Assembly: GCA_965208325.1 (NCBI GenBank)
Contig: OZ242326.1
Span: 1,184,001 to 1,248,000, forward strand
Source: Candidatus Poribacteria bacterium
GTDB taxonomy: Bacteria > Poribacteria > WGA-4E > PCPOR2b
Direction: 5' to 3'
Length of the DNA: 64,000 bases
This document shows positions 8,296 to 58,898 of this stretch, one piece after another; positions within the stretch are counted from its first letter, which is position 1, and each line of letters starts with the position of its first letter. Made by a program: the position numbers and the translations under genes. The notes under the pieces were generated by a model that was not told where the DNA came from, did not search any database, and saw nothing but the letters and a program-made list of their open reading frames with translations.

Positions 8296-8976
8296 CTATT
8301 CCGTTTTTTCCTTAAGTTTCGCGGCACGTTGATGACGAATCACATCGCCTTCAACCAAATAGTACACCTCTTCGCCAATATTCGCCGCCAAGTCTCCAAT
8401 CCGCTCCAAATGCCGGAAGAGCAGCAACGTGCTGATGCCAGGCCGGACGAGTTCAGGCCGCTCAATCATATACGTCAAAAGCTCACGCAAAGTTTGGTCG
8501 TATATGGCGTCAACCTGCTTATCTCGTTCCCGCACCTCCTGGGCTAAGATAGCGTCGCGGTTTACAAATGCGTCGAGTGTGTCTTTCACCATTTCCTGGA
8601 CGATTCCAGCAACGCGCGGCAAATCTATAAACGGCTTAACCGGCGCATGCTCCATTAATTCCAGGCATCGTTGAGCAATATCGACTGCCTTGTCTGCCAT
8701 CCGCTCAAGGTCACGGTTAATCTTCATCGCCATCGTGAGAAAACGGACATCTGACGCCGCTGGCTGGTGGAGGGCAATGAGTTGGATGCAGTATTCTTCA
8801 ATTTCATTCTCAAGTGCATCGGCTTGGTCATCACTGTCAATGACCGCCTGCGCAAGCTCTCCGTTGCGGTTGAGAACAGACTCGACCGCCCGGTGTAGCA
8901 TATCTTCCGCAAGGTCCCCGAGCACGAGCAGTTTCTGTTGAAGTTCACTTAATTCAAGTTCAAAACGCCGCTGCAT
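8296..8976 (-). CDS. phoU: phosphate signalling complex protein PhoU
   Basis: LHQPAASDVR, DLERMAD, HLERIGDLAANI; at the end of the pst operon. Confidence 0.96.
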   Translation of the reverse strand: MQRRFELELSELQQKLLVLGDLAEDMLHRAVESVLNRNGELAQAVIDSDDQADALENEIEEYCIQLIALHQPAASDVRFLTMAMKINRDLERMADKAVDIAQRCLELMEHAPVKPFIDLPRVAGIVQEMVKDTLDAFVNRDAILAQEVRERDKQVDAIYDQTLRELLTYMIERPELVRPGISTLLLFRHLERIGDLAANIGEEVYYLVEGDVIRHQRAAKLKEKTE

Positions 8977-9124
8977 CGTAATACCTCCTTTTGCCGGATG
9001 ATGTATATTTCATGCAATCCGTACATCAACCTAATTCAGGGCACATCATTTGGTTAAGAAATCTGTAATTCATGCATAATGGACAGTCATCCAGACTACT
9101 GTCTCGCCGAAAATTTAAGGCCAA

Positions 9125-9904
9125 TTAACCAAACTTGCCTGTGATGTAAGCCTCTGTCCTTGAGTCTCCCGGATTGGTAAATATCTTTTCTGTCGCATCA
9201 AATTCAATCAGCTCGCCGAGATAGAGAAAAGCCGTAAAATCCGAGACACGCGCCGCCTGTTGCATGTTGTGCGTAACGATTAGAACCGTATAGTTGGCTT
9301 TCAATTCCAGTATCAGTTCCTCAATTTTGCCCGTCGCTATTGGATCGAGCGCTGAACACGGTTCATCCAGCAACAATACCTCCGGTTCAATTGCTAACGT
9401 CCTCGCGATGCAAAGCCGCTGTTGTTGTCCGCCAGAAAGTGTGTACGCGTTGTCTTTCAACTTGTCCTTGACTTCATCCCATAGCGCAGCCTTTTTCAAA
9501 CTGTCTTCAACTATCATATCAAGCTTAAGACGATTGCGAATCCCCGAAATCCTAGGGCCGTAAGCCACATTTTCATAGATGGATTTTGGAAACGGGTTCT
9601 GCTTCTGAAAGACCATGCCGAGCCGCAAACGCACCTCTACCGGATCAATTGCGGGGGAGTATAAATCCTCGCCCTCCAAGAGGATTTGTCCCGCCAGCCT
9701 AAAAGTGGGAATGAAGTCGTTCATACGGTTGAAACACCGGATGAGCGTACTTTTGCCGCATCCGGACGGGCCAATCAACGCGGTCACTCTGAAACGTTCA
9801 ATATTAAACGATATATCTTTCAGCGCCAGTGCCGTGCCATACCAAGCGTTTAAACTTTGTACATTTAAGATGGTGTCTACTTTATTCAGTTGCTCGTGGT
9901 TCAT
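9125..9904 (-). CDS. pstB: phosphate ABC transporter ATPase
   Basis: [38 protein letters not shown]; start moved to ATG 9904 to avoid overlap with pstA. Confidence 0.96.
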
Positions 9905-9911
9905 CTTTGCC

Positions 9912-10790
9912 TCACGAATACTGTGTCTGATAACGGTTTCGTAAAAAGATAGCGAGGGCATTTAAGAGGAGTGTCACCGCCAACAGGACAACGATTCCTG
10001 CTGCTGCATTGGTGAGAAATTCTTTTTGCGGTCTGTCAACCCAATTGTAAATCTGAATAGGTAACACGGTAAATGGCTTGAGTAGCCCTTCGGGCGGATG
10101 TGTAACGAACATTAGCGCCCCTATCATAATCAACGGAGCAGTTTCTCCGACCGCACGCGAAATGGCAAGGATTACTCCGGTGAGAATCCCCGGGAACGCC
10201 ATTGGCAGGACATGGTGACTAATCGCCTGCCAGCGCGAGGCGCCGAGTGCATACGCCGCTTCACGGATACTGGGGGGTACAGACCGAATTGCCTCGCGAG
10301 CCGAAATAATAACAATTGGCAGCACGAGTAGCGCCAATGTCAATGCCCCCGCCAAAAGGCTCTTGTCTAGGCGCATTATCCTGACAAACAGCCCCAATCC
10401 TAAAATTCCGTAAATTATCGAAGGCACTCCTGCTAAATTGGCGACATTGATTTCGATGATGCGGCTAATGCGGCTTGACCGATTCGTATATTCTTCAAGA
10501 TAGATTGCCGCACCCACGCCCAATGGCACACTGATTAACGCGGTTAGCGCTATCACGTACATACTGCCAAGCAACGCCGCAAATATTCCGGCTTCTGCAG
10601 GGAACCGGGACAAGTAGCTAGTTAGAAACTTCCAACTGAGCCGCGGCACCCCATCAATGAGCGCATCTACAATCAGCGCTCCTAATGTGATTAGCGCTAT
10701 CAATACGCCAATTGCAGCAACAATCTGAAAAATTCGGTCATTCCGCCTTTGCCTAGCGAGAAGCCTTTGGAGTTGTGTCCTTGAGATCAT
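9912..10790 (-). CDS. pstA: phosphate ABC transporter permease PstA
   Basis: [29 protein letters not shown]. Confidence 0.95.
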
Positions 10791-11686
10791 TCGTACCTCT
10801 CCCTAAAGCGCCGGCGCAACCGGTCTCCGAGGATGTTGAGCATGAACGTTGATACAAACAGCACCATACCTACCGCAAAAATCGTCCTGTATACAAGCGT
10901 ACCGCTCGGTGTGTCGCCCAAACTGACCTGAACGATGTAAGCCGTCATCGTCTCTATAGCCACCAACGGGTTAAACGTGAATGTCGGTTTCTTGCCCGCG
11001 GCAATTGTAACCAACATCGTCTCGCCGATAGCACGGGAAACCGCGATAACAAAGGACGCTGTTATGCCGGAAAACGCCGCCGGTACGACAACCCGCCACG
11101 AAACCTGAAGCCGAGAAGAACCTAACGCATAGGCTGCATCCCGCAAACTGCGGGGCACTGCAAACATAGCATCCTCGCTGAGAGAGGAGACTAACGGGAG
11201 TATCATGATGCCCATTACGATGCCGGGTGAGAGTGCGTTAAACGCTTCAAGGGAAGGAATCAGTCGCTGCAAAAGCGGCGTGACAAACAGCAGCGCAAAG
11301 TAACCGTAGACAATCGTGGGTACACCGGCTAATATCTCCAAAATGGGTTTCAACAATCGACGCAGTCTGTCCGGGGCATATTCACTCAAAAAAATCGCCG
11401 TTAACAGCCCCAAGGGTACAGCCGTGAAAACGGCGATTAGTGATATTAACACTGTCCCTGACAGCAGGGAAAGCACACCGAATCGCTTGTTCGTGAATTG
11501 GGGAGTCCACTCCCTGTCGGTTAGGAATTCGAAGACCGAAACCTCTTTAAAAAAGGCAATCGTCTCAAACAACAGCACACAGATAATTCCAACGGTGGTT
11601 AAGATGGAGAGTAGACCACATGCCATAAGGCTCAATTCAATAATCCGCTCAATGATCCGAGACGTCTTTGTCTGCTTCGATCTCAT
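10787..11686 (-). CDS. pstC: phosphate ABC transporter permease PstC
   Basis: [28 protein letters not shown]; start uncertain (ATG 11686 chosen). Confidence 0.93.
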
Positions 11687-11770
11687 TGGATTCGGCCATC
11701 GAAACTGTTGTTTTTCATAAAAAACAAGATTATCCTCCGCCCCGTTAGAACACGGGATTCCCGGCACCGC

Positions 11771-12778
11771 TTAATTTATATCGCCGCGTAGAACATCATC
11801 TATCGAAACTCCCAATGTCGAACCCTTACCGCCAAACACTGAGCCGGTGACGCGATTTTGGAAACGCCGCAGGATGAGTTGGTATGTCTCTTCCGGAAGC
11901 GGAATGTATTCAGCTTCCTCGGTCAAAGTCTTCGCTTGCTGCAAATAAAATTCAACAAATTTTTCAACCTCCGGACGGTCAGCCGACTGCTTGCTGACGT
12001 ATATGAAGATTGGCCGCGATAGCGGCTGATACGTGGCATTTTTGACTGTCTCTAGCGAGGGAGCGATGGCACCGTCGCCGTTGTCCATTTTCCCATCGTC
12101 TATCGGTACGAGCTTCAGAATTTCCCGATTGGCTTCGTAATATGCAAGTCCAAAGACTCCTAGCGTGTAATCATCCCGGGCTACCGCCTGCACGAGTACG
12201 TTGTCATTCTCGCTAGCAATAAAATCCCCGCGGCTCGCCCCCTCTTCACCACAGACAGCCTTCGTAAAGTAATCATACGATCCAGAATCCGGGCCAGGGC
12301 CAGCAAGTGAAATCTTCTTACTCGGCCAATCCGGTCGAATTTGATTCCAGTATAATATCTTCCCTTGCGCCTCCGGCTCCCAAAGCTTCTTCAGTTCCGC
12401 AACCGTCATATAATCCACCCAGTCGTTTTCCGGATTGACTGTGATTGCCAAACCGTCGAATGCCACTGGCAGTTCAATATACTCAATGCCGTTCTTCTTA
12501 CACAATTCAACCTCCGAGGGTTTGATAGGGCGCGACGCATTAGTCACGTCGGTTTCACCGCGTCCGAATTGTTTAAATCCGCCGCCGGTGCCGGAGATAC
12601 CGACAGTTACTCTGAATGTAGGGTTTTCTTTCTGGAACTCTTCAGCCACTGCCTCGGTAATAGGATAAACCGTGCTTGAACCATCCACTTCAACTAGGAG
12701 GGAATCGTCGCCGCAGCCGCTGTAAAATACGCTCAACAGGAGCGCAAGTGTGCCGAACCATCTGAATTTCATAAACAT
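11771..12778 (-). CDS. pstS: phosphate ABC transporter substrate-binding lipoprotein
   Basis: Lipobox [39 protein letters not shown] upstream of ATG 12778. Confidence 0.95.
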
Positions 12779-12890
12779 AATGAACCACTCACCTCTCTTC
12801 CACCGGAAAATACCGCCGAATAAGTGTTTTATTCCAAGAATCCTTAGAACCGTTTGACAATTCATTTTATACAGCCCCAGAGAAGCGTCC

Positions 12891-12953
12891 GTAGGCGGGG
12901 CATCTTGCACCGCGTGAACCAACACGCCCTGTAGGCCGGGCATCTTGCCCCGC
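12891..12953 (+). repeat. tandem pair of GTAG-type REP-like palindromes (family A)
   Basis: GTAGGCGGGGCATCTTGCACCGC at 12891 and GTAGGCCGGGCATCTTGCCCCGC at 12931, 40-nt period. Confidence 0.7.
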
Positions 12954-38770: not shown

Positions 38771-40849
38771 ATGGCACGGGAATACGCGATCGAACGCGTG
38801 CGTAATATCGGTATCATGGCGCACATTGACGCCGGCAAAACCACCACCACAGAACGAATTTTATTCTACACGGGCAAGAAACACAAGATTGGCAAAGTAG
38901 ATGACGGCACGGCTGAGATGGATTGGATGGTGCAGGAACGCGAACACGGCATTACCATCACGGCCGCAGCCACAACCTGTTTGTGGCAAAATCACGCCAT
39001 TCATCTGATTGACACCCCAGGCCATGTTGATTTCACTGTCGAAGTCGAGCGCTCTCTCCGTGTGCTCGATGGCGCCATCGCACTTTTCTGTGCCGTTGGC
39101 GGTGTTGAACCTCAATCCGAAACTGTTTGGCATCAGGCAGATCGGTACCGCATTCCTCGCGTCGCATTTGTAAACAAGATGGATCGGGTCGGCGCAAATT
39201 TCCGCCGTGTCATAAAGATGATGGAAGAGGTGCTAAACGCTAACCCCTTGTTGATACAATTGCCAATCGGATCTGAAAGCCAGTTTTCCGGCGTTATCGA
39301 TCTAATCCACATGAAAGCTATGCACTGGAACGTTGACGATCAAGGGTGGACGTTCGATTCACAGGAGATTCCTTCGGAACTCCAATCAGAAGCGCGTGAG
39401 GCGCGTGAGGCCATGATTGAAATTATCGCCGGAGAGGATGATTTCCTGCTTGAGAAATACGTCGAAGGTGCTGAAATTACTGAAGCCGAGTTGCTAAACG
39501 GGATTCGCACCGGTACGCTAAAAAATGCATTCTGTCCTGTTTTATGCGGTACCGCCCTAAAAAACCAAGGCGTGCAACCCTTGCTTGATGCCGTCATCCA
39601 ATTTTTACCTTCGCCGCTTGATGTGCCTCCGATTGAGGGAACACACCCGAAAACAGAAAAATCGGATACCCGCGAAGCAAAAGATAACGCCCCGTTCTCG
39701 GCTTTGGCGTTCAAAATCGCCAGCGATCCGAATGTGGATAAGATCATTTACTGCCGTATCTACTCTGGCACGCTCAAGCGCGGTGATGTGCTCTACAACG
39801 TGGCAAAGAATTCAAGAGAGCGTGTGACCCGAATTTTGGAAATGCACGCCAACAAGCAATTGGTCTGCGATGAAATGCATGCAGGAGACATCGTCGCCCT
39901 TGTAGGCTTGAAAAAAACCACTACCGGTGACACGCTGACTCATGCTAGGCATCCGATTTTGTTGGAATCGATAAATTTCCCGGATCCCGTTATCTCCGTC
40001 GCAATCGAACCCACATCCCAAAGCGACAAGGACAAACTTGAAGAGACGCTTCAAGTCTTAATGGAAGAAGATCCGACGTTCTCGGTCGCGATCGACAAAG
40101 AAACAGGGCAGAGAGTAATCTCCGGCATGGGCGAACTTCATCTGGAAATCTTGGCAGATCGGATGATTCGAGAGTTTGGCGTAAACGCCCGCGTCAGTCA
40201 GTTACAGGTTGCCTATCGGGAGACCATCGGTGCGGTTGCTGAAGCACAGGGAAAGTTCATCCACAAAACGGAGGAGGAAGGCATTTACGGGGATGTTGCG
40301 CTGCGCGTAGAGCCGTTACCCAGAAAACAGGGATTTCAGTTCGTCAATGAAAGTAGCGACCTGCAAATCCCGAGGCAATTCATCACCGCGATTGAAGGCG
40401 CGCTCAAAGGCGCAATGAACAACGGCGTTTTAGCCGGCGTCCCAATGCAAGACATCAAAGTCGCGCTCACCGGCGGTTCATACCATGAAACCGATTCATC
40501 GGAAATCGGGTTTGAAGCCGCTGCTGTCGTCGCATTCGAGAATGCGCTCAAGAAAGCACAACCGCTTTTGCTAGAGCCCATCATGAGAATGCAAGTCATT
40601 GTGTCCAGTGAGTTCATCGGAAAAGTAATTGGCGATCTCAGCGCACGGCGCGCGCAAATAAACGAAACCGAGAGCCGCGGATTGTCAGAAGTTCTCAATG
40701 CGTACGTTCCACTAGCGGAGACATTCAAATATACAACCGATTTGCGTTCGATGACGCAAGGACGCGGAACGTTCACAATGGAGCTGGCACACTATGACGT
40801 TGTACCCGTCAATCTCCGCGACAAAATATTAAATCGAAACTGGTTTTGA
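38771..40849 (+). CDS. fusA: elongation factor G (stand-alone copy)
   Basis: [41 protein letters not shown]; no rpsL/rpsG/tuf neighbours. Confidence 0.93.
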
Positions 40850-42025: not shown

Positions 42026-42757
42026 TTACCCAGAAGCGGCGAGGAATTTTTCAATCTCAGTCTTAAGGTCTTGGTTCACCGCTTCAATGCTGCGAGACGC
42101 GTCAACCACTGTAAAACCAAATTCGTCGGTCATTCTGTCAAATTCTTGAATGATTCGAGTTTGATACCGCACAAAGCTCTCATACACATCCCCTGAGAGT
42201 CCAATATCCATGCCCGATTCCCAGTAGCTCATGCTGCGCCCGGATTCAAAAGTACGCCGAATCAAATCCTCGACGCCAATCCTCAAGTAGATTACCAGAT
42301 CCGGTATTAGCGCAAAGCCATAAACTTCGCGAAGCCAGTTTGGATTGATGCCGCGTACGATATGCCGTGCAAAGGCAGTGTACATATAACGGTCCGCAAG
42401 AACGATAAATCCGCCTTTGAGCGCCGGAATTATCACATTTTCCAGTCGATCGGCAAAATCAGCGGCATACAAGACACTGAAAGTAATCTGGTTTAAGGTA
42501 TTGCCTTTCTTCACTGAGTCAATTGCTGGGCCCAATAACGGCGAGCGCGTCCATCCGGTATTCACCACGCCATAACCTTTCACCTCAAGCCATTTCGTCA
42601 AATTGTCGCTCAACGTCGGCTTGCCTAGGCTATCGACGCCCTCAATATGTGTCGATCTGCCAACCGCGTCAGTACCTTCAATTACAATTAATCTGCCGGA
42701 CAAATCGCTCACATCAAGGTACGGCATACCATTACCGTAGAACATCCGATCTTTCAT
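42026..42757 (-). CDS. thymidylate-kinase-like protein with degenerate P-loop (candidate PPK3 regulatory subunit)
   Basis: EGTDAVGRST (Lys to Arg), DFADRLENVIIPAL, ADRY, YWESGMD; lacks the TREPG motif of Tmk. Confidence 0.75.
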   Translation of the reverse strand: MKDRMFYGNGMPYLDVSDLSGRLIVIEGTDAVGRSTHIEGVDSLGKPTLSDNLTKWLEVKGYGVVNTGWTRSPLLGPAIDSVKKGNTLNQITFSVLYAADFADRLENVIIPALKGGFIVLADRYMYTAFARHIVRGINPNWLREVYGFALIPDLVIYLRIGVEDLIRRTFESGRSMSYWESGMDIGLSGDVYESFVRYQTRIIQEFDRMTDEFGFTVVDASRSIEAVNQDLKTEIEKFLAASG

Positions 42758-42905
42758 CTGTTTTTCCTTGCGAAGTTGGGTCCAAGTCGATAGCGCCATC
42801 TACAGCCAAAAAACTTTTTCAACGCCTCTTGGGCGATGGTCTAAACGTACAATTCTCATTAACTTCCCAAACCGATGAGTTCATGAAGAACGGGAGAACC
42901 AGAGG

Positions 42906-43619
42906 TTACGTTTCCTTCTGAAATCGCTCAAGCCCCATGGGTTGATGATGCTTATCATAGTCAATCAATGCCTTCCGTACAACTTCACGTACAAGTTCCT
43001 GCTGTTTGTCAATTGGTCCGCTGCCGTCAACCACTGTCAATCCATATTCAGTCGCCAATCGATCGTATTCTTTGAGAACGCGGCCCTGGAAGATTTTGAA
43101 ACTGGTCGTCGAATCTTCACTTAAACCGAGATCCATTCCCGCCTCGTAAAATTTGAGCTTTCCGCGCCCTATCCTAATTCGCTTAATGGACACATCAATC
43201 GAAACTTTGAAATAAAACGCTATGTCTGGTTTCACAGCGAAGGAATACAGATTTCTTACCCAGTCCGGATGGACTCCACGGGAAACATCTCGCGCAAATG
43301 CCGTAAAAGCATAACGGTCAGACATCACAATCATCCCTGCTTCTAGTGGCGGAATAATCATATTTGCCAACCGATCAGCGAAGTCAGTCGCGTGCATAAT
43401 GCTGAATGTCGTCGGGGTTAGCAAATTCCTCTTTTTTCCTTTCCGGGTAGTCTGCTTCACGAGGGGAGAGGAATTCCATTCCGTGTAAAACACACTATAG
43501 CCTTCAGACACTAACCACTTTCGCAAAAGGTCTAATTGTGTGCTCTTTCCTGAACCGTCAATTCCCTCAACCACAAAGAGCCTTCCGGGATACGGATGAG
43601 GTTGTTTTAACATGTTCAT
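42906..43619 (-). CDS. thymidylate-kinase-like protein with intact P-loop (candidate PPK3 catalytic subunit)
   Basis: EGIDGSGKST, TEWNSS, DFADRL, SDRY, FYEAGMD. Confidence 0.8.
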   Translation of the reverse strand: MNMLKQPHPYPGRLFVVEGIDGSGKSTQLDLLRKWLVSEGYSVFYTEWNSSPLVKQTTRKGKKRNLLTPTTFSIMHATDFADRLANMIIPPLEAGMIVMSDRYAFTAFARDVSRGVHPDWVRNLYSFAVKPDIAFYFKVSIDVSIKRIRIGRGKLKFYEAGMDLGLSEDSTTSFKIFQGRVLKEYDRLATEYGLTVVDGSGPIDKQQELVREVVRKALIDYDKHHQPMGLERFQKET

Positions 43620-43824
43620 CTTTTCCTCCTACTCTCAATTCTGCCTGATACTGGTACTACCCAAATTGCATTGAACCATCGACCTCCTATTACCGCACTC
43701 ACGAAAATTTTAATTGCTTTTCAACGAGCAAAACGGCATCAGTTTCGCTCCTGTGTCAATGCGCATCCGACATTGGCCAAATTGATTCGTTACGCTAGCC
43801 TGCTTAGAGAAGTACAAGATAGGT

Positions 43825-44343
43825 TCAGTTATGTAGGGTGTGGTCGCTAATGTGAGTTATGAGTAGCTCATTGTTCTTCCGCATCTCATCTCGGATTTCT
43901 CTCATGTCTCCACGGATGTCTTCTCGGATTTCTTTCATTTCTTCGCGGGATTCTTCTCGGATTTCTTTCAAATCCTCACGCGTTTCTTTTATTTCCTCGC
44001 GCATTACTTTCATTTCTTCTCGAAAAACGCTAAATTGAGTTGCCATATCACTACGCAAATCCTCTATCCGACTGCCGAGCGAGTCACCGAGATCCGATGT
44101 GTGCTTGTTGCTATCGTCTATCCGTTTGCCGAGTGAGTCACCGACATCCTCAACCCGTTTGCCAAGTGAGTTGCCGAGATCATCTATCCGCTTGCCGAGT
44201 GAGTTGCCGAGATCGTCTATCCGCTTGCCGCAATCATCAACCCGCTTTCCCAACGCGTTTGTGATGTAATAACCGATAGTACCAATTCCACCGATGTAAG
44301 CAATAACAAGTACGGCTAATTGCAAGGTGACATTCCAGTCCAT
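43825..44343 (-). CDS. membrane-anchored heptad/hendecad coiled-coil protein, copy C
   Basis: N-terminal TM; DLG[DN]SLGKRID 11-mers; EIREESREEMK-type 11-mers; conserved C-terminus ITHISDHTLHN. Confidence 0.85.
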   Translation of the reverse strand: MDWNVTLQLAVLVIAYIGGIGTIGYYITNALGKRVDDCGKRIDDLGNSLGKRIDDLGNSLGKRVEDVGDSLGKRIDDSNKHTSDLGDSLGSRIEDLRSDMATQFSVFREEMKVMREEIKETREDLKEIREESREEMKEIREDIRGDMREIRDEMRKNNELLITHISDHTLHN

Positions 44344-44423
44344 TTCGATTTCCCCTGCTTGGTGCGCGATAATATTCTATCCCGCACAAAATTCTGTCCT
44401 TTTAAGAGAAGGATGTGCACGGA

Positions 44424-44942
44424 TTAGTTATGTAGCGTATGGTCGCTTATGTGAGTTATGAGCAGCTCATTATTCTTCCGCATCTCATCTCGGATTTCTC
44501 TCATGTCGCCACGGATTTCTTCTCGGATTTCTTTCATTTCCTCTCGCATTAATTTCATTTCTTCTCGAAAAGCGCTAAGTTGAGATGCCATATCACTACG
44601 CAAATCGTCTATCCGACTGCCGAGCGAGTCACCGAGATCTGATGTGTGCTTGTTGCTATCGTCTATCCGTTTGCCGAGTGAGTCACCGACATCCTCAATC
44701 CGTTTGCCGAGTGAGTCACCGACATCCTTAATCCGTTTGCCGAGTGAGTCACCGAGATCCGTAGTGTACCTGCTGCTATCGTCTATCCGATTGCCAAGTG
44801 AGACGCTGACATCCTCTATTCGCTTGCCGCTATCATCAACCCGCTTTCCCAGCGCGTTGGTGATGTAATAGCCGATAGTACCAATTCCACCTATATAAGC
44901 AATTAACAATACGGCTAATTGCAAGGTGACATTCCAGTCCAT
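44424..44942 (-). CDS. membrane-anchored coiled-coil protein, copy B
   Basis: Near-identical to its neighbours with a different module count. Confidence 0.85.
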   Translation of the reverse strand: MDWNVTLQLAVLLIAYIGGIGTIGYYITNALGKRVDDSGKRIEDVSVSLGNRIDDSSRYTTDLGDSLGKRIKDVGDSLGKRIEDVGDSLGKRIDDSNKHTSDLGDSLGSRIDDLRSDMASQLSAFREEMKLMREEMKEIREEIRGDMREIRDEMRKNNELLITHISDHTLHN

Positions 44943-45022
44943 TTAGATTCCCCCTGCTTGGTGTGCGATAATATACTATCCCGCACAAAATTCCGTGCTT
45001 TTAAGCGAAGGATGTGCACGGC

Positions 45023-45628
45023 TTAGTTATGTAGCGTATGGTCGCTTATGTGAGTTATGAGTAGCTCATTATTCTTCCGCATCTCATCTCGGATTTCTCT
45101 CATGTCTCCACGGATGTCTTCTCGGATTTCTTTCATTTCTTCGCGGGATTCTTCTCGGATTTCTTTCAAATCCTCGCGGGATTCTTCTCGGATTTCTTTC
45201 AAATCCTCACGCGTTTCTTTTATTTCCTCTCGCATTAATTTCATTTCTTCTCGAAAAGCGCTAAGTTGAGATGCCATATCACTACGCAAATCGTCTATCC
45301 GACTGCCGAGCGAGTCACCGAGATCCGATGTGTGCTTGTTGCTATCGTCTATCCGTTTGCCGAGTGAGTCACCGACATCCTCAATCTGTTTGCCGAGTGA
45401 GTCACCGACATCCTTAATCCGTTTGCCAAGTGAGTCACCGAGATCCGTTGTGTACCTGCTGCTATCGTCTATCCGATTGCCAAGTGAGACGCTGACATCC
45501 TCTATTCGTTTGCCGCAATCATCAACCCGCTTTCCCAGCGCATTGGTGATGTAATAGCCGATAGTACCAATTCCACCTATATAAGCAATTAACAATACGG
45601 CTAATTGCAAGGTGACATTCCAGTCCAT
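45023..45628 (-). CDS. membrane-anchored coiled-coil protein, copy A
   Basis: Longest copy (201 aa); first transcribed. Confidence 0.85.
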   Translation of the reverse strand: MDWNVTLQLAVLLIAYIGGIGTIGYYITNALGKRVDDCGKRIEDVSVSLGNRIDDSSRYTTDLGDSLGKRIKDVGDSLGKQIEDVGDSLGKRIDDSNKHTSDLGDSLGSRIDDLRSDMASQLSAFREEMKLMREEIKETREDLKEIREESREDLKEIREESREEMKEIREDIRGDMREIRDEMRKNNELLITHISDHTLHN

Positions 45629-45755: not shown

Positions 45756-46793
45756 CTAAACGTCACGCTGCGGCGGCGTTATGTCTTCTCCTAACATCTG
45801 GCGCGCCAAAACTGCGCCGCCGATGACGCCCGCGTTGTCGCCGAGTTCAGCGCCTACGATTTGGACACCGTCCATCGTACTCGGCAATACGTGTTTCGCC
45901 GTCGTGCTGCGGATGCCATCCAGAAAACCGTCTCCCATCGCTTCGATAAGTCCTCCCCCCAGCACAATCATCTCGGGGTTTAAGAAATTTATGATTGAAG
46001 CAACCCCGATACCCAGATAATTCTGAGCTCGGCGCATCACTTTCGCCGTCAACTTGTCACCGCGGCGTACTGCTTTTGCTAAGGTACTGCTGCGAATCAA
46101 ACCTAAATTTCCGCCGTTCAACTTTAGCAAAATGCTCCTCTTCCCATTTTTGAGTATCGCTTTTCGTAGCTGCCGCGTAATGGCTGTACGGCTCGCAACA
46201 GCTTCCAAACACCCTAGGTTTCCGCAACCGCAGCGCGGACCGTCTGATTTGACGATAATGTGACCCACTTCACCGGCTGTATCACTTGCGCCACGGAACA
46301 GCTTGCCATCTAAAATTATCCCGCCGCCGATTCCGGTACCAACGAAAATCCCAACGAGGGATTTGACCCCAAGCCCAACCCCGGAAGCCGACTCCCCTAA
46401 TGTACATAGATTGACATCGTTTTCGACGAATGTCGGAATACCCATACTTGCTTCAAGTTTTGCCTTGAGAGGTACATTCGACCAGCCGAGGTTCGGGGCA
46501 AAGATAACAACACCTGTATCCGGATCTAGCGGTCCCGGTGCGCCAATCCCTATTGCCTGAATCTGAGGGGATTCCATCCCCGTTCGATCAATCGCATTTC
46601 GGATACACTGAGCAATCCGATCTATCACTTCATGCGGACCCTTATCTGCCTTCGTAGCGGTTTTCGATTGAGATATTATTCTTCCCGCCGCATTCACGAC
46701 CGACGCCAAAATCTTTGTGCCGCCCATATCTACACCGACGACATATTCATTGGAAGAGAGCATTTCCGGGAATCGTGCTCGTGTATTATTCAT
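45756..46793 (-). CDS. ROK family sugar kinase (glucokinase-like)
   Basis: GVDMGGTK, ENDVN, GTGIGGG, GEVGH, CGCGNLGCLE; no N-terminal HTH. Confidence 0.92.
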   Translation of the reverse strand: MNNTRARFPEMLSSNEYVVGVDMGGTKILASVVNAAGRIISQSKTATKADKGPHEVIDRIAQCIRNAIDRTGMESPQIQAIGIGAPGPLDPDTGVVIFAPNLGWSNVPLKAKLEASMGIPTFVENDVNLCTLGESASGVGLGVKSLVGIFVGTGIGGGIILDGKLFRGASDTAGEVGHIIVKSDGPRCGCGNLGCLEAVASRTAITRQLRKAILKNGKRSILLKLNGGNLGLIRSSTLAKAVRRGDKLTAKVMRRAQNYLGIGVASIINFLNPEMIVLGGGLIEAMGDGFLDGIRSTTAKHVLPSTMDGVQIVGAELGDNAGVIGGAVLARQMLGEDITPPQRDV

Positions 46794-49290: not shown

Positions 49291-50139
49291 CTATCTATCA
49301 GCGTTCTGATACTCCGGTGTTTGCCTGAGCCACGGTTGAAATAATTTACGCTGGTCTTCATCGTAGCGCGCCCACGTCGTCGGTTGGATATACTGCAGTT
49401 CGTCCCAAGTAGCAATGTTCTGTGACATCATCCAACCCGGACCGTAGCCCACGTGTAAAGTCTTACGGGGTTCGCCCGACCGGTTAGTAAATCCGCCGTG
49501 CCGCAAGTTTTCGGTAAACACTATGGCGTCGCCCGAGTTCACTTCCAGTCCAATCATGCCGGGATCGTCGTCTACATGGCATTGATAAGGCACTGCAAAC
49601 CCCGACTTATGAGAGCCGGCCTCGACACAAAAGGCGCCGTCCATGTTGCTAACATCGTGCGTGAAATAGATAAAACGCACCATCATGCAATCAATCCCCT
49701 TTGCATTCACCGAGTATCGGTATTTGTAACTTCGGCAATATCCGCCGCCATGGGTACTGCTGCAATTGCCGGGATATCGTATGCGTAACTCGGAGTTGTT
49801 GATGCCGATTTCTTCCTGCACAAGGCTGAAAATATAGGAATTGGTTTTGGGATGGTTAACGAGGAAATCGAACGCCAAATCGAAATTGAAAAAATCTTCA
49901 ATTATGAATGTCTGACCGTACTCGTGGCCGCCCGTGACGTGGTACCCGCGCTCTGCGTTGAAATGATACTCGCTGCCAAAATTCCCGCTTTTGCGCGGCG
50001 CTAATTGGTAATGCGCCATAGCATGCTGTTCCAATGTATCAATTGCCAGTCGTAATCGGCCGACCTCTTCATCAGTCAGAAAATTTCGCAGTACCAGAAA
50101 GCCCTGCCGGTCAAATTCGTACTGTTCAATCTCCGTCAT
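49291..50139 (-). CDS. PhyH-family Fe(II)/2OG enzyme (HxG variant)
   Basis: YEFDRQGFLVL, GAFCVEAGSHK, GDAIVFTENLRHGG; first metal motif THGG; SD AGGA before ATG 50139. Confidence 0.85.
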   Translation of the reverse strand: MTEIEQYEFDRQGFLVLRNFLTDEEVGRLRLAIDTLEQHAMAHYQLAPRKSGNFGSEYHFNAERGYHVTGGHEYGQTFIIEDFFNFDLAFDFLVNHPKTNSYIFSLVQEEIGINNSELRIRYPGNCSSTHGGGYCRSYKYRYSVNAKGIDCMMVRFIYFTHDVSNMDGAFCVEAGSHKSGFAVPYQCHVDDDPGMIGLEVNSGDAIVFTENLRHGGFTNRSGEPRKTLHVGYGPGWMMSQNIATWDELQYIQPTTWARYDEDQRKLFQPWLRQTPEYQNADR

Positions 50140-50231
50140 TTTTTTCCTACTCCTATGCTTATTCATTGTGCCTAGCAACATTGTTGAGGTAACCTGCATG
50201 CTGTCTTGTTCTTAAACATTATACCACAGAC

Positions 50232-52501: not shown

Positions 52502-53410
52502 TCAATCGGTATACTCATATCCCCACGTTTGCGTCCAATTGGGAAGGTACCCTTCGGTTTCCTCAAACCCGTAGGACCTCGCAATTTGGCGAGAATGCAC
52601 GTGCGGCCACGCTTGACCGCCGATTAATCGAAATTCGTCTCCCTTGCCGGATAGCCAATAGAACATATGCGCAATGTATCTGGATAACTGATGCCCTCCG
52701 TAATAAGCCGTCTGAAAGTCGAAGTCGGGCTCGATGATCCAATCCCGCTTCGGCGGCACGGTTCGCCAGTAATTATATTTTAGCATGTGGCGGACGCCCT
52801 CTATTGTGGATTCTCCTTTGCGGTGCAAAATACTTTGATGATGAACAATCAGAGATCCCGCCGGGGCAGCGGTCGCAATTCCTTTGTCCCCTGCATGCCA
52901 CGGCTGAGGACGCAGATGCGACTCCGGCACAATCCCGGTAGGTCCTAATTCCACTGGGGTATCCTGTGGGTAGTAGAACACTTCGACAAAGTTAACCTCG
53001 GGCCCAAATATGCAGTCGTGGTCTTGATGCCAATTCTGAGGCGGCCCCGGACACTGAGCGCGGTGATGGCTAACTAGTATTGGCAAGCCGATTTGCCGCC
53101 CTAGCAGCGACCGCAACACACCCGTCAATTGCGGATTGAGCAACGCATGTTCAATAAACCAATCCTCAAGCAGAAGCGTGCTATTCGTGGCGTTGCGAAT
53201 TCGCTCCAAATCTTCAGTTGTCATCCCTTCAGGAATATAACTCGGATTAGCCGGTAGCCTACCTTCCAAATATTCAATTGCCCGCAGATTGATTTCATCG
53301 GGCACCACACCCTCCAAAATCACATACCCACTGCGGCAAAATTCAAGCACCTGTGAATCTGTTAGCGTCGGTTCACAGTCAAACGTCCTATTCTCTTTAT
53401 CGTATTTCAT
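52502..53410 (-). CDS. PhyH-family dioxygenase
   Basis: GYVILEGVV, WHQD, GPTGIVPESH, ILHR. Confidence 0.88.
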   Translation of the reverse strand: MKYDKENRTFDCEPTLTDSQVLEFCRSGYVILEGVVPDEINLRAIEYLEGRLPANPSYIPEGMTTEDLERIRNATNSTLLLEDWFIEHALLNPQLTGVLRSLLGRQIGLPILVSHHRAQCPGPPQNWHQDHDCIFGPEVNFVEVFYYPQDTPVELGPTGIVPESHLRPQPWHAGDKGIATAAPAGSLIVHHQSILHRKGESTIEGVRHMLKYNYWRTVPPKRDWIIEPDFDFQTAYYGGHQLSRYIAHMFYWLSGKGDEFRLIGGQAWPHVHSRQIARSYGFEETEGYLPNWTQTWGYEYTD

Positions 53411-57640: not shown

Positions 57641-58139
57641 AATTTTCTTTCAGTGCGGGCATCTTGAGTCTTCGTTTGAGATGATATTATATGCGGAAAG
57701 GCTATTATTTTCAATATAATTAAATTCTGGGATTCATAAATCCGCTGCGATCTCGACAATTCGCCGCCCAACTGACGACAGCTTCGGCCGAATCACGATA
57801 GCCAAGGACGCATTAACAACCACGCGATTGGCGTAACGCCTTGCCGATGCGCGTTTTTATGTTTTTTTGCATTGTTACCCGCTATATAGGTATAATAGTA
57901 TTTTGAACTTGGCGCGAGTCAATCGAAAATGACGCATGAGCCGGCAAGCAGGCGATATGCGCCAGCATGCATAGCATACCCGCCGCAAGCTAGGCTAACT
58001 TCAAGAAACGAATCTCAGCATCACGTGAAACTCCTTAGGATGGCTAAAGGAGTGAAAACGAGAGGGGGAGAAAACGAGAAGGCGAGTACAAGCAATTCCC
58101 CGTCTTCCCGTCTTCTCCATCATAATGGGGGTAGAGCAA

Positions 58140-58898
58140 ATGTCTACGACTACCGACCTTAACGCCGCGATTGATCACCTAACCGTCTACGGCTACTGTA
58201 TATTGGAAAACCGCATTCCCGAGGACATGGCGCTGAGCATGGCTGAGCGATTCCTCGAATTGCACGCAGACCCGCAGTGGAATTCTTTCAAGATTGGTGA
58301 CGAATACTATCAGACACTGTTTGGGATGCTGAACCTTGACGACCGTGTATGGAACTGTTCCGGCCATCCCGACGTGGTCGCAATCGCAGAGCATTTTCTG
58401 GGGCCAAACTGTCGAATCCCCGATGCGTGTTCCAAGCCAACTTGGCCCGGTGCGCCGCACGGACCGTTGCACGTTGATTCCGCCAGCACTTTCGCTAGGG
58501 TGCCGAGTGTGCCGTGGATGATTAACGGTATGTGGATGTTGACGGAGTTCACCGAAGAAAACGGTGCAACTGGCGTCGTGCCGCTGAGCCACCGCACGCG
58601 CTTGCACGGTCCGCCGCCGGAAATTACGCCCGACAGTCCGCTAATTAAGCCTATCACCGGACGTCCCGGTACCGTGATGTTGTGGCATGCCGGACTATTC
58701 CACATGTCGCGCGCCAACACCACATCCGACGAAATTCGGGTCGGGCTGAATTCAGGTTACTGCCCACGCTGGTTCAACAATTGGGCTGAAGGATGCCATC
58801 AGCCGGTTTGGCCCGAAACATACGAGCGAATGCCGCCCGAAATGAGGCGTCTGTGTCCAGGCCGTCTCGGACGAAACCGCGCAGAGCTTTACGAATAA
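58140..58898 (+). CDS. PhyH-family dioxygenase
   Basis: GYCILE, LHVD, FTEENGATGVVPLSH, LFH...N. Confidence 0.9.
   Translation: MSTTTDLNAAIDHLTVYGYCILENRIPEDMALSMAERFLELHADPQWNSFKIGDEYYQTLFGMLNLDDRVWNCSGHPDVVAIAEHFLGPNCRIPDACSKPTWPGAPHGPLHVDSASTFARVPSVPWMINGMWMLTEFTEENGATGVVPLSHRTRLHGPPPEITPDSPLIKPITGRPGTVMLWHAGLFHMSRANTTSDEIRVGLNSGYCPRWFNNWAEGCHQPVWPETYERMPPEMRRLCPGRLGRNRAELYE

Follow-up and report, generated by a model that had tools for sequence, protein, structure and literature searches.

The 64,000-nucleotide stretch of a Candidatus Poribacteria bacterium analysed in this study (GenBank assembly GCA_965208325.1, contig OZ242326.1, positions 1,184,001 to 1,248,000 of the forward strand; hereafter the window) carries, at positions 42026-43619, a pair of thymidylate-kinase-like genes, here called c and r, that probably specify a bacterial family-3 polyphosphate kinase (PPK3) of two subunits. 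Exactly two open reading frames (ORFs) were listed in this span, both on the minus strand and together filling it fully:

43625..43630, minus strand: AGGAGG ribosome-binding site of c, 5 nucleotides (nt) upstream of the c ATG, as read from the sequence
42906..43619, minus strand: c gene, predicted catalytic subunit (cPPK3-like), 237 amino acids (aa), PF02223 E-value 1e-22
42800..42905, minus strand: c-r spacer, 106 nt, or 148 nt with the r start at 42757
42026..42799, minus strand: r gene, predicted non-catalytic or regulatory subunit (rPPK3-like), 257 aa as the longest ORF, PF02223 E-value 1.2e-19

Both products matched Pfam PF02223 (Thymidylate_kin) and were 42% identical to each other over 219 columns (E = 6e-63), a paralogy far beyond chance. 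An earlier note on this DNA, made from the letters alone, had pointed to two adjacent, co-oriented paralogs that share several motifs and lack the TREPG motif of thymidylate kinase (Tmk), and each of these observations was reproduced in the translations. DFADRL lies at residues 79-84 of c and 114-119 of r, followed by IIPPL in c and IIPAL in r; DRY lies at residues 101-103 and 136-138, YEAGMD at residues 158-163 of c and WESGMD at 193-198 of r, and GSGKS at residues 22-26 of c vs AVGRS at 45-49 of r. In place of TREPG stand TEWNSS in c (residues 46-51) and TGWTRS in r (residues 81-86). Because the promoter and terminator scan found no terminator-like or promoter-like site in the spacer, c and r are likely co-transcribed; none was found upstream of c either. 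The start of r is more likely Met15 (ATG at 42757), giving a protein of 243 aa, because AAGGA lies about 10 nt upstream of it and P0123, a relative with 98% identity, begins at this position.

In older papers, the name PPK3 denotes a protein of Ruegeria (Silicibacter) pomeroyi that belongs to the PPK2 family and shares the name only. The family meant here was published in the Journal of Biological Chemistry in 2026, after a preprint in 2024, and the Sulfolobus background given in the earlier note, namely two Tmk-like subunits of which one is catalytic and one regulatory, agrees with that account: Saci_2019 (cPPK3) and Saci_2020 (rPPK3), each of which used to carry a dTMP kinase annotation, assemble into a heteromeric enzyme with a reversible reaction, SaPPK3 (PMC12995831). 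SaPPK3 prefers the formation of ATP from polyphosphate (polyP) and ADP and is strongly controlled by the ATP/ADP ratio (PMC12995831). Saci_2019 makes ATP as well as polyP and no dTDP, and Saci_2020, which by itself gave only trace ADP formation, boosts the activity about 10-fold; the inactivity of Saci_2020 and of STK_15420 is explained by a replaced arginine of the DRX motif, and STK_15430 is named as a cPPK3 homolog (PMC12995831). The same source describes the PPK3 clade as mainly bacterial, states that all predicted operons encode both c and r, and marks Phycisphaerae bacterium RAS2 as PPK3-positive in its Data S1 (PMC12995831). The idea of bacterial PPK3 pairs is thus already in print and less new than the earlier note implied.

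The feature set of cPPK3, that is, the Walker A lysine, the DRX arginine and the lid, was completely present in the c protein of the window. The features are listed below with their conservation among 32 aligned c-type proteins:

43539..43565, minus strand: intact Walker A motif (P-loop) GIDGSGKST, residues 19-27; G19, D21, G22, G24 and K25 invariant (32/32)
43467..43484, minus strand: TEWNSS, residues 46-51, at the place of the canonical Tmk TREPGG; W48, S50 and S51 invariant (32/32)
43428..43445, minus strand: basic patch RKGKKR, residues 59-64; K62 invariant and K63 at least 90% conserved in c
43311..43319, minus strand: DRY (DRX motif), residues 101-103; D101 and R102 invariant (32/32)
43131..43181, minus strand: lid (R147, R152, K156) followed by YEAGMD, residues 147-163, where a non-Tmk segment of about 12 residues starts

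All 32 c-type sequences keep K25, K62, R83, R102, R110, R114, R147 and R152; in the lid region, E159, G161 and D163 are likewise invariant and K156 is at least 90% conserved. Of the basic residues K62, K63, R114, R147, R152 and K156, which c conserves, r has lost most, the cleft residues of the published enzyme being given in figures. Where c carries its basic patch (the K62/K63 region), the r family has A, G or H. By analogy with the description in PMC12995831, the RKGKKR patch is a candidate part of the polyP-binding cleft.

The r protein shows a different pattern, which is listed below. Invariance in r was counted over 35 aligned r sequences, and the wider comparison of both types used 117 c and 111 r relatives, these being listed matches of 200-300 aa after 4 and 8, respectively, were dropped for length.

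42719..42742, minus strand: N-terminal arm FYGNGMPY, residues 20-27; family consensus FYGxGLPY, absent from c
42650..42676, minus strand: variant P-loop GTDAVGRST, residues 42-50, with the Walker A Lys replaced by Arg
42611..42646, minus strand: 12-residue insert IEGVDSLGKPTL, residues 52-63, which repeats the P-loop segment just before it as an old tandem duplication
42542..42559, minus strand: TGWTRS, residues 81-86; G82, W83, R85 and S86 at least 90% conserved in r
42386..42394, minus strand: DRY, residues 136-138, kept; D136, R137 and Y138 invariant (35/35)
42206..42223, minus strand: WESGMD, residues 193-198, after a lid without equivalents of c R152 and K156

The family forms of Walker A were GIDGSGKST in c and GTDGVGRST in r. 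All 111 r relatives have Arg in the column of the Walker A Lys, and V46 is equally universal (111/111); R48 is invariant in the 35 aligned sequences. On this comparison of sequences, AVGRS is the local form of a family-conserved GVGRS and no random decay. The N-terminal arm is also conserved among the 111 r relatives (F 95%, Y 90%, G 94%, G 99%, P 99%, and Y 98%), and in the structural model of r it has no secondary structure, with predicted local distance difference test scores (pLDDT) of 55-82; the whole model reached a pLDDT of 85.9 and a predicted template modelling score (pTM) of 0.84. With respect to c, r keeps the equivalents of R83, R110, and R147 and lacks those of K63/K64, R152, and K156: the R152 column holds a gap or G, the K156 column D or S, and the R114 column Met in 65% of the r relatives.

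The insert IEGVDSLGKPTL and the unit preceding it, IEGTDAVGRSTH (residues 40-51, 42647-42682, minus strand), are identical in 6 of 12 residues and 18 of 36 bases. The insert breaks the helix after the P-loop in the r model. It was present in the five closest relatives examined (P0123, P0124, P0125, P0126, and P0128) and in none of the 77 r proteins of related loci, which are the best 80 of at least 562 stretches confirmed among 600 matched in a scan of one genome per species. Judged from these alignments, the P-loop duplication, on which the earlier note is silent, is a lineage-specific oddity.

Public databases name the relatives of both proteins "dTMP kinase" or "thymidylate kinase", as the earlier note had expected of automatic annotation. 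If this label is right, one or both genes encode dTMP kinases for dTTP synthesis, and the second copy is redundant or a decaying duplicate. Besides these names and the PF02223 match, scores close to the cut-off of the dTMP kinase equivalog model of NCBIfam (TIGR00041) speak for this possibility, and STK_15430 of Sulfurisphaera tokodaii carries the dTMP kinase label in its deposition and in one earlier report. However, c and r scored 81.8 and 80.1 bits, respectively, just under the cut-off of 83.25 bits. The best PDB relative of both was STK_15430 (2plr; E = 1.8e-55 and 191 bits for c, E = 7.8e-40 for r), and canonical Tmks followed at E-values of only about 1e-12. Likewise, the best fold match of the r model was S. 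tokodaii st1543, with a template modelling score of 0.91, and the Tmks of S. aureus and human reached about 0.82-0.86. TEWNSS or TGWTRS takes the position of the TREPGG segment that four of the five canonical Tmks show (the four displayed), and HATDF or YAADF that of the FxxxR segment, such that the columns of E. coli F74 and R78 hold H76 and F80 in c; we take TREPGG and FxxxR to be the dTMP-binding residues of Tmk. Furthermore, about 12 extra residues follow the lid in c and r, where the four displayed Tmks have a gap. Neither Saci_2019 nor Saci_2020 formed dTDP, whereas Saci_0893 did (PMC12995831). A decaying duplicate is also at odds with the 32 columns of r that are invariant among 35 sequences from many phyla, and the label leaves the genomic linkage to polyP genes described below (52 of 80 loci) unexplained. 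Thus, dTMP kinase function appears very unlikely. In Pfam, neither protein matched the PPK2 family (PF03976) at E ≤ 0.1, and no PF02223 protein other than c and r was found in the 64-kb window.

The position of c and r was further examined in a quick IQ-TREE tree (LG+C20) of 83 rows. These comprised c and r of the window, the c and r proteins of 26 loci chosen for taxonomic spread, 25 cluster representatives, and five canonical Tmks as outgroup (E. coli, Geoalkalibacter, Listeria, Methylibium, and Pontibacillus); 54 of the 80 loci were omitted, and one c row was dropped owing to a stop in a merged match. Clustering with canonical Tmks, which the earlier note had suggested looking for, was not seen: the 78 PPK3-like rows, c and r of the window among them, were split from the five Tmks with a support of 100 in the Shimodaira-Hasegawa-like approximate likelihood ratio test (SH-aLRT). 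The c rows grouped together (support 93), the r rows with the Lys-to-Arg replacement formed a clade (support 95), and c and r of the window fell into the former and the latter, respectively. Both share L001 and L005 as sister loci, which is the pattern that joint inheritance of the pair would produce.

A Sulfolobaceae-type c representative, P0326, was placed outside the c+r group in the quick tree with a weak support of 86. This placement would allow the Lys-to-Arg r clade to have arisen separately after the split from Sulfolobaceae-type c. Such an origin was not supported, since a tree constrained to unite all c-type rows including P0326 was better by 10 log-likelihood units and was not rejected by the approximately unbiased test (p-AU 0.627); hence, no conclusion on separate origins of helper subunits is drawn. 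Side by side with this, several family members were observed to keep GSGK and to have lost the DRX motif, namely P0264 (ADGY), P0387 (VDQY), P0333 and P0323 (NKY), and likewise P0349, P0385, P0362, and P0368, the forms across the set including CERY and AEQY. These proteins may be alternative helper subunits, and helper subunits would therefore have been disabled in more than one way.

Pairing of the two genes was strict among the related loci. In 76 of the 80 loci, r follows c directly on the same strand. Three loci of Planctomycetota (L020, L042, and L052) have r on the strand of c but 2.6-2.7 kb upstream, and an ORF of the Ppx/GppA family separates the two genes. The contig of the remaining locus stops 33 nt past c; both genes were thus present in all 79 assessable loci. 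Measured from the stop codon of c, the first aligned residue of r lay at a median of -2 nt (76 loci), with no in-frame fusion among the 76. Clean natural c-r fusion proteins were found elsewhere (P0132, P0138, P0142, and P0241); P0024, P0135, P0145, and P0260 were not counted as fusions owing to frameshift-like, low-complexity stretches. In the model of the P0142 fusion (pLDDT 88.1, pTM 0.54), both domains fold and their mutual arrangement is unfixed; the alignment of its r half was poor, MAFFT having put free r sequences on the c half, and no inference was drawn from it.

The gene context of the 80 loci, many of them short, was surveyed up to 7 kb from the pair: ORFs of 90 aa or more were clustered, and Pfam served to name the recurrent clusters. 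Ppx/GppA neighbours were present in 41 loci, 33 of them within 300 nt of the pair. CHAD proteins occurred in 24 of the 80 loci, SixA-like histidine phosphatases in 16, PstB in 9, PstC/A in 8, PhoU and PhoB-like regulators in 7 each, PhoR-like kinases in 6, and PstS in 5. PPX, CHAD, or SixA-like genes were found in 52 of 80 loci; among the 42 loci with a full 20 kb, 30 had one of these three, 32 had any polyP or Pho gene, and 10 had none. This linkage is therefore typical of the family and no universal feature of it, and the pair of the window belongs with the 10 unlinked loci.

For lineages unlinked from ppx and CHAD, the proteins could be P-loop kinases for another anionic acceptor than polyP. 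The window and the 10 full-length loci without any polyP or Pho gene within 7 kb fit such a function, as do the neighbours in the window, which are a convergent gene for a GT9 heptosyltransferase, three tandem genes for coiled-coil membrane proteins, and a ROK glucokinase-like gene. Nevertheless, c of the window is 69% identical to c of L001, a locus with PPX, SixA-like, and PhoR/PhoB-like genes; no catalytic or basic residue that the family conserves is missing from c; and unlinked loci intermingle in the tree with ppx/CHAD-linked ones. A different acceptor is accordingly regarded as extremely unlikely. The ROK gene (45756-46793) was also considered as a polyphosphate glucokinase and rejected (39.9 bits against a cut-off of 250); for ROK glucokinase it scored 249 bits against a cut-off of 260.

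We consider it probable that c and r are the two subunits of a bacterial PPK3. What is directly established comprises the sequence, the fold, the clade, the catalytic residues of c, the residue losses of r, the strict pairing, and the polyP linkage in relatives; the c-r pairing and the ppx/CHAD/SixA linkage of relatives support a polyP role. The function assigned to the pair rests on homology and gene context. From these we infer which reaction is catalysed and in which direction, a complex of c with r, and possible nucleotide binding by r, as follows. By homology with SaPPK3, c would move phosphate between polyP and ADP/ATP, with polyP + ADP to ATP as the preferred direction as in the characterised archaeal enzyme, and it has every catalytic element of a P-loop kinase: the Walker A Lys, the DRY arginine, the Arg/Lys lid, and the conserved basic patch. 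As a paralog of the same fold that has lost the Walker A lysine, the basic patch, and two lid residues and gained a conserved N-terminal arm, r is most likely non-catalytic and would bind and activate c as Saci_2020 does Saci_2019, probably in an alpha2beta2 assembly as in SaPPK3. The proposal of the earlier note that the pair is a bacterial PPK3-type enzyme is thus supported by STK_15430 as the best relative, the split in the tree, the c-r pairing, and the linkage in relatives. As regards the label of a degenerate copy in that note, r is not degenerate in the manner of Sulfolobus rPPK3, as it keeps the DRX arginine and has the Walker A Lys-to-Arg replacement instead.

An alternative version of PPK3 is that r is no inert scaffold and binds ATP or ADP, acting either as an allosteric sensor of energy charge or through a second activity such as polyP-dependent phosphorylation of AMP, the latter by analogy with two-domain PPK2 proteins. 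Since the variant P-loop and DRY are strongly constrained, we speculate that r may still bind a nucleotide and confer sensitivity to energy charge. The invariance of R48, D136, R137, and Y138 (35/35) and the retained equivalents of c R83, R110, and R147 are in line with this, and the GVGRST-type P-loop conserved in 111/111 relatives suggests selection for a ligand-binding site. Replacement of the Walker A Lys by Arg usually abolishes phosphoryl transfer, which counts against a catalytic r; furthermore, the basic patch and the lid residues conserved in c are missing from r, and binding is predicted from sequence comparison. The archaeal enzyme is strongly controlled by ATP/ADP, whereas Saci_2020 gave trace ADP only (PMC12995831). 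A nucleotide-binding r is thus judged unlikely, and an activating, non-catalytic r is preferred.

Several points weigh against the assignment of the pair as PPK3. The literature search found no paper assaying a bacterial PPK3. An earlier structural report presented STK_15430 as an unusual dTMP kinase, for which, by the account of the preprint, only the formation of ADP had been followed (PMC12995831). The inactivity of r is only a prediction, because the DRX arginine lost in the published rPPK3 is kept. Finally, no ppx, CHAD, or SixA gene was found in the 64-kb window, whose sole phosphate genes, a PstS, PstC, PstA, PstB, and PhoU cluster at 8296-12943 on the minus strand, lie about 30 kb from the pair. 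This cluster is a complete set for high-affinity phosphate uptake.

Relatives of the pair were numerous. At least 8000 protein clusters matched c with E ≤ 1e-10, the best being 93% identical, and at least 7585 of 8000 scored matched r at the same threshold; many named c relatives at 67-70% identity belong to Kapabacteria, Acidobacteriota, and Bacteroidota, all of them called dTMP kinase. Among representatives of clusters at 50% identity, 8875 matched at E ≤ 1e-3 and 345 at E ≤ 1e-30. The best 80 loci came from Bacteroidota, Planctomycetota, Acidobacteriota, Chloroflexota, Nitrospirota, Armatimonadota, Thermodesulfobacteriota, Hydrogenedentota, Eisenbacteria, and Binatota, together with three Nitrososphaerota archaea and one Methanoliparum; no Sulfolobales locus was among them. 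P0275 and P0333 were considered as Sulfolobales proteins and rejected (204 and 149 bits to 2plr, the named relative of P0333 being from Margulisiibacteriota). The r genes of the Nitrososphaerota loci (L071, L072, and L076) keep DRY and have the Walker A Arg, like r of the window. The nearest of the 80 loci, in a metagenome-assembled genome of Bacteroidota, is just 69% identical, and the lineage of the window is hence taken to be absent from the collection of species genomes. As a separate observation, nine representatives (P0294, P0309, P0311, P0328, P0336, P0340, P0345, P0363, and P0373) are multidomain proteins of 770-2575 aa with a c-like domain in mid-protein, which has EGLDGSGKST, often ADRW for ADRY, and 40-50% identity to c.

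These data suggest that PPK3 is far commoner in bacteria than the abstract of PMC12995831 says; Acidobacteriota, Nitrospirota, Chloroflexota, Planctomycetota, Bacteroidota, and Armatimonadota are among the phyla that have it. A broader proposal, which we regard as doubtful though possible, is that r of bacteria and Nitrososphaerota is a nucleotide-binding allosteric sensor of ATP/ADP that became a pseudo-kinase by another route than the DRX loss of Sulfolobus, and that PPK3 is a major, overlooked polyP-ATP buffer. The counts behind the buffer are at least 562 species-level genomes from more than 10 phyla and at least 8000 scored protein clusters. If this were true, PPK3 would serve as such a buffer in uncultured bacteria of soils and sediments and would be no archaeal oddity "in a few bacteria". 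Because its public name is "dTMP kinase", inventories of polyP metabolism in phosphorus removal, soil phosphorus cycling, and energy-stress physiology miss PPK3. Moreover, since the bacterial r lost another catalytic residue than the characterised archaeal r, a bacterial pair such as this one is a useful second model for the helper subunit. For the window itself, the result is a correct re-annotation within an already described family, its bacterial branch included, and no discovery. Relative to the text of PMC12995831, the extent of the bacterial branch, the Lys-to-Arg replacement in the helper instead of DRX loss, and the lineage-specific P-loop duplication appear to be new.

Some other features of the window were recorded. 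Directly upstream of c and on the same strand lie the three tandem paralogs for coiled-coil membrane proteins (172, 172, and 201 aa; 43825-45628, minus strand). Their N-termini, hydrophobic and beginning with MDWNVTLQLAVL, are nearly identical, as are their C-termini, and between these ends the proteins differ in the number of 11-residue repeats (GDSLGKRI[ED]D and EEMKEIRE types), corresponding to 33-nt tandem repeats. They gave only sub-threshold Apolipoprotein-like matches in Pfam and no match in NCBIfam. Three genes for PhyH-family dioxygenases are located within 10 kb (49291-50199, minus strand; 52502-53410, minus strand; and 58125-58898, plus strand) and adjoin genes for an ATP-binding cassette exporter, a Wzi-like protein, and an FG-GAP/ASPIC protein. 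Beside the heptosyltransferase gene, outside a str operon context, lies a full-length EF-G gene (38771-40849, plus strand; TIGR00484, 952 bits), which may be a second EF-G copy.

Among known systems, SaPPK3 (Saci_2019 and Saci_2020) is the one that the pair resembles as a whole. Both consist of adjacent paralogs of the dTMP kinase fold, one with the full catalytic set and one without it; both belong to the same clade apart from canonical Tmk; the relatives of the window pair stand in operons with ppx, CHAD, and SixA; and the Sulfolobaceae-type P0326, which scores 295 bits to STK_15430, is 44% identical to c of the window. The differences concern mainly r, which keeps the DRX arginine and has the Walker A Lys-to-Arg replacement, Saci_2020 being known here by its description, and which carries the N-terminal FYGxGLPY arm and the 12-residue P-loop duplication. 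In addition, the pair of the window is not adjacent to ppx, CHAD, or SixA, and it is bacterial and probably mesophilic, with an activity that is only predicted.

By sequence, the closest solved structure to both c and r is STK_15430/st1543 (PDB 2plr, 4nzy, 4rzx, and 5h70), which has TEWNSS, DFxDR, DRY, and the additional post-lid segment in common with them. It differs in being an archaeal c-type protein solved without an r partner and deposited as a "probable thymidylate kinase", and its post-lid segment reads QEAGADIF vs YEAGMDLG in c of the window. Canonical Tmk (TIGR00041, e.g. E. coli b1098) has the fold, the Pfam family, the P-loop, the DRX motif, and the lid in common with the pair, whereas in c and r TREPGG is replaced, about 12 residues are added after the lid, the clade is separate (support 100), and the scores lie below the cut-off. 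Finally, the two-domain class II PPK2 of P. aeruginosa (PA3455) is likewise a P-loop kinase that phosphorylates nucleotides at the expense of polyP and combines an inactive with an active homologous module, an analogy also drawn for PPK3 in PMC12995831. PPK2 is another family, and its modules are fused, whereas those of the window are encoded by separate genes, although rare c-r fusions occur.

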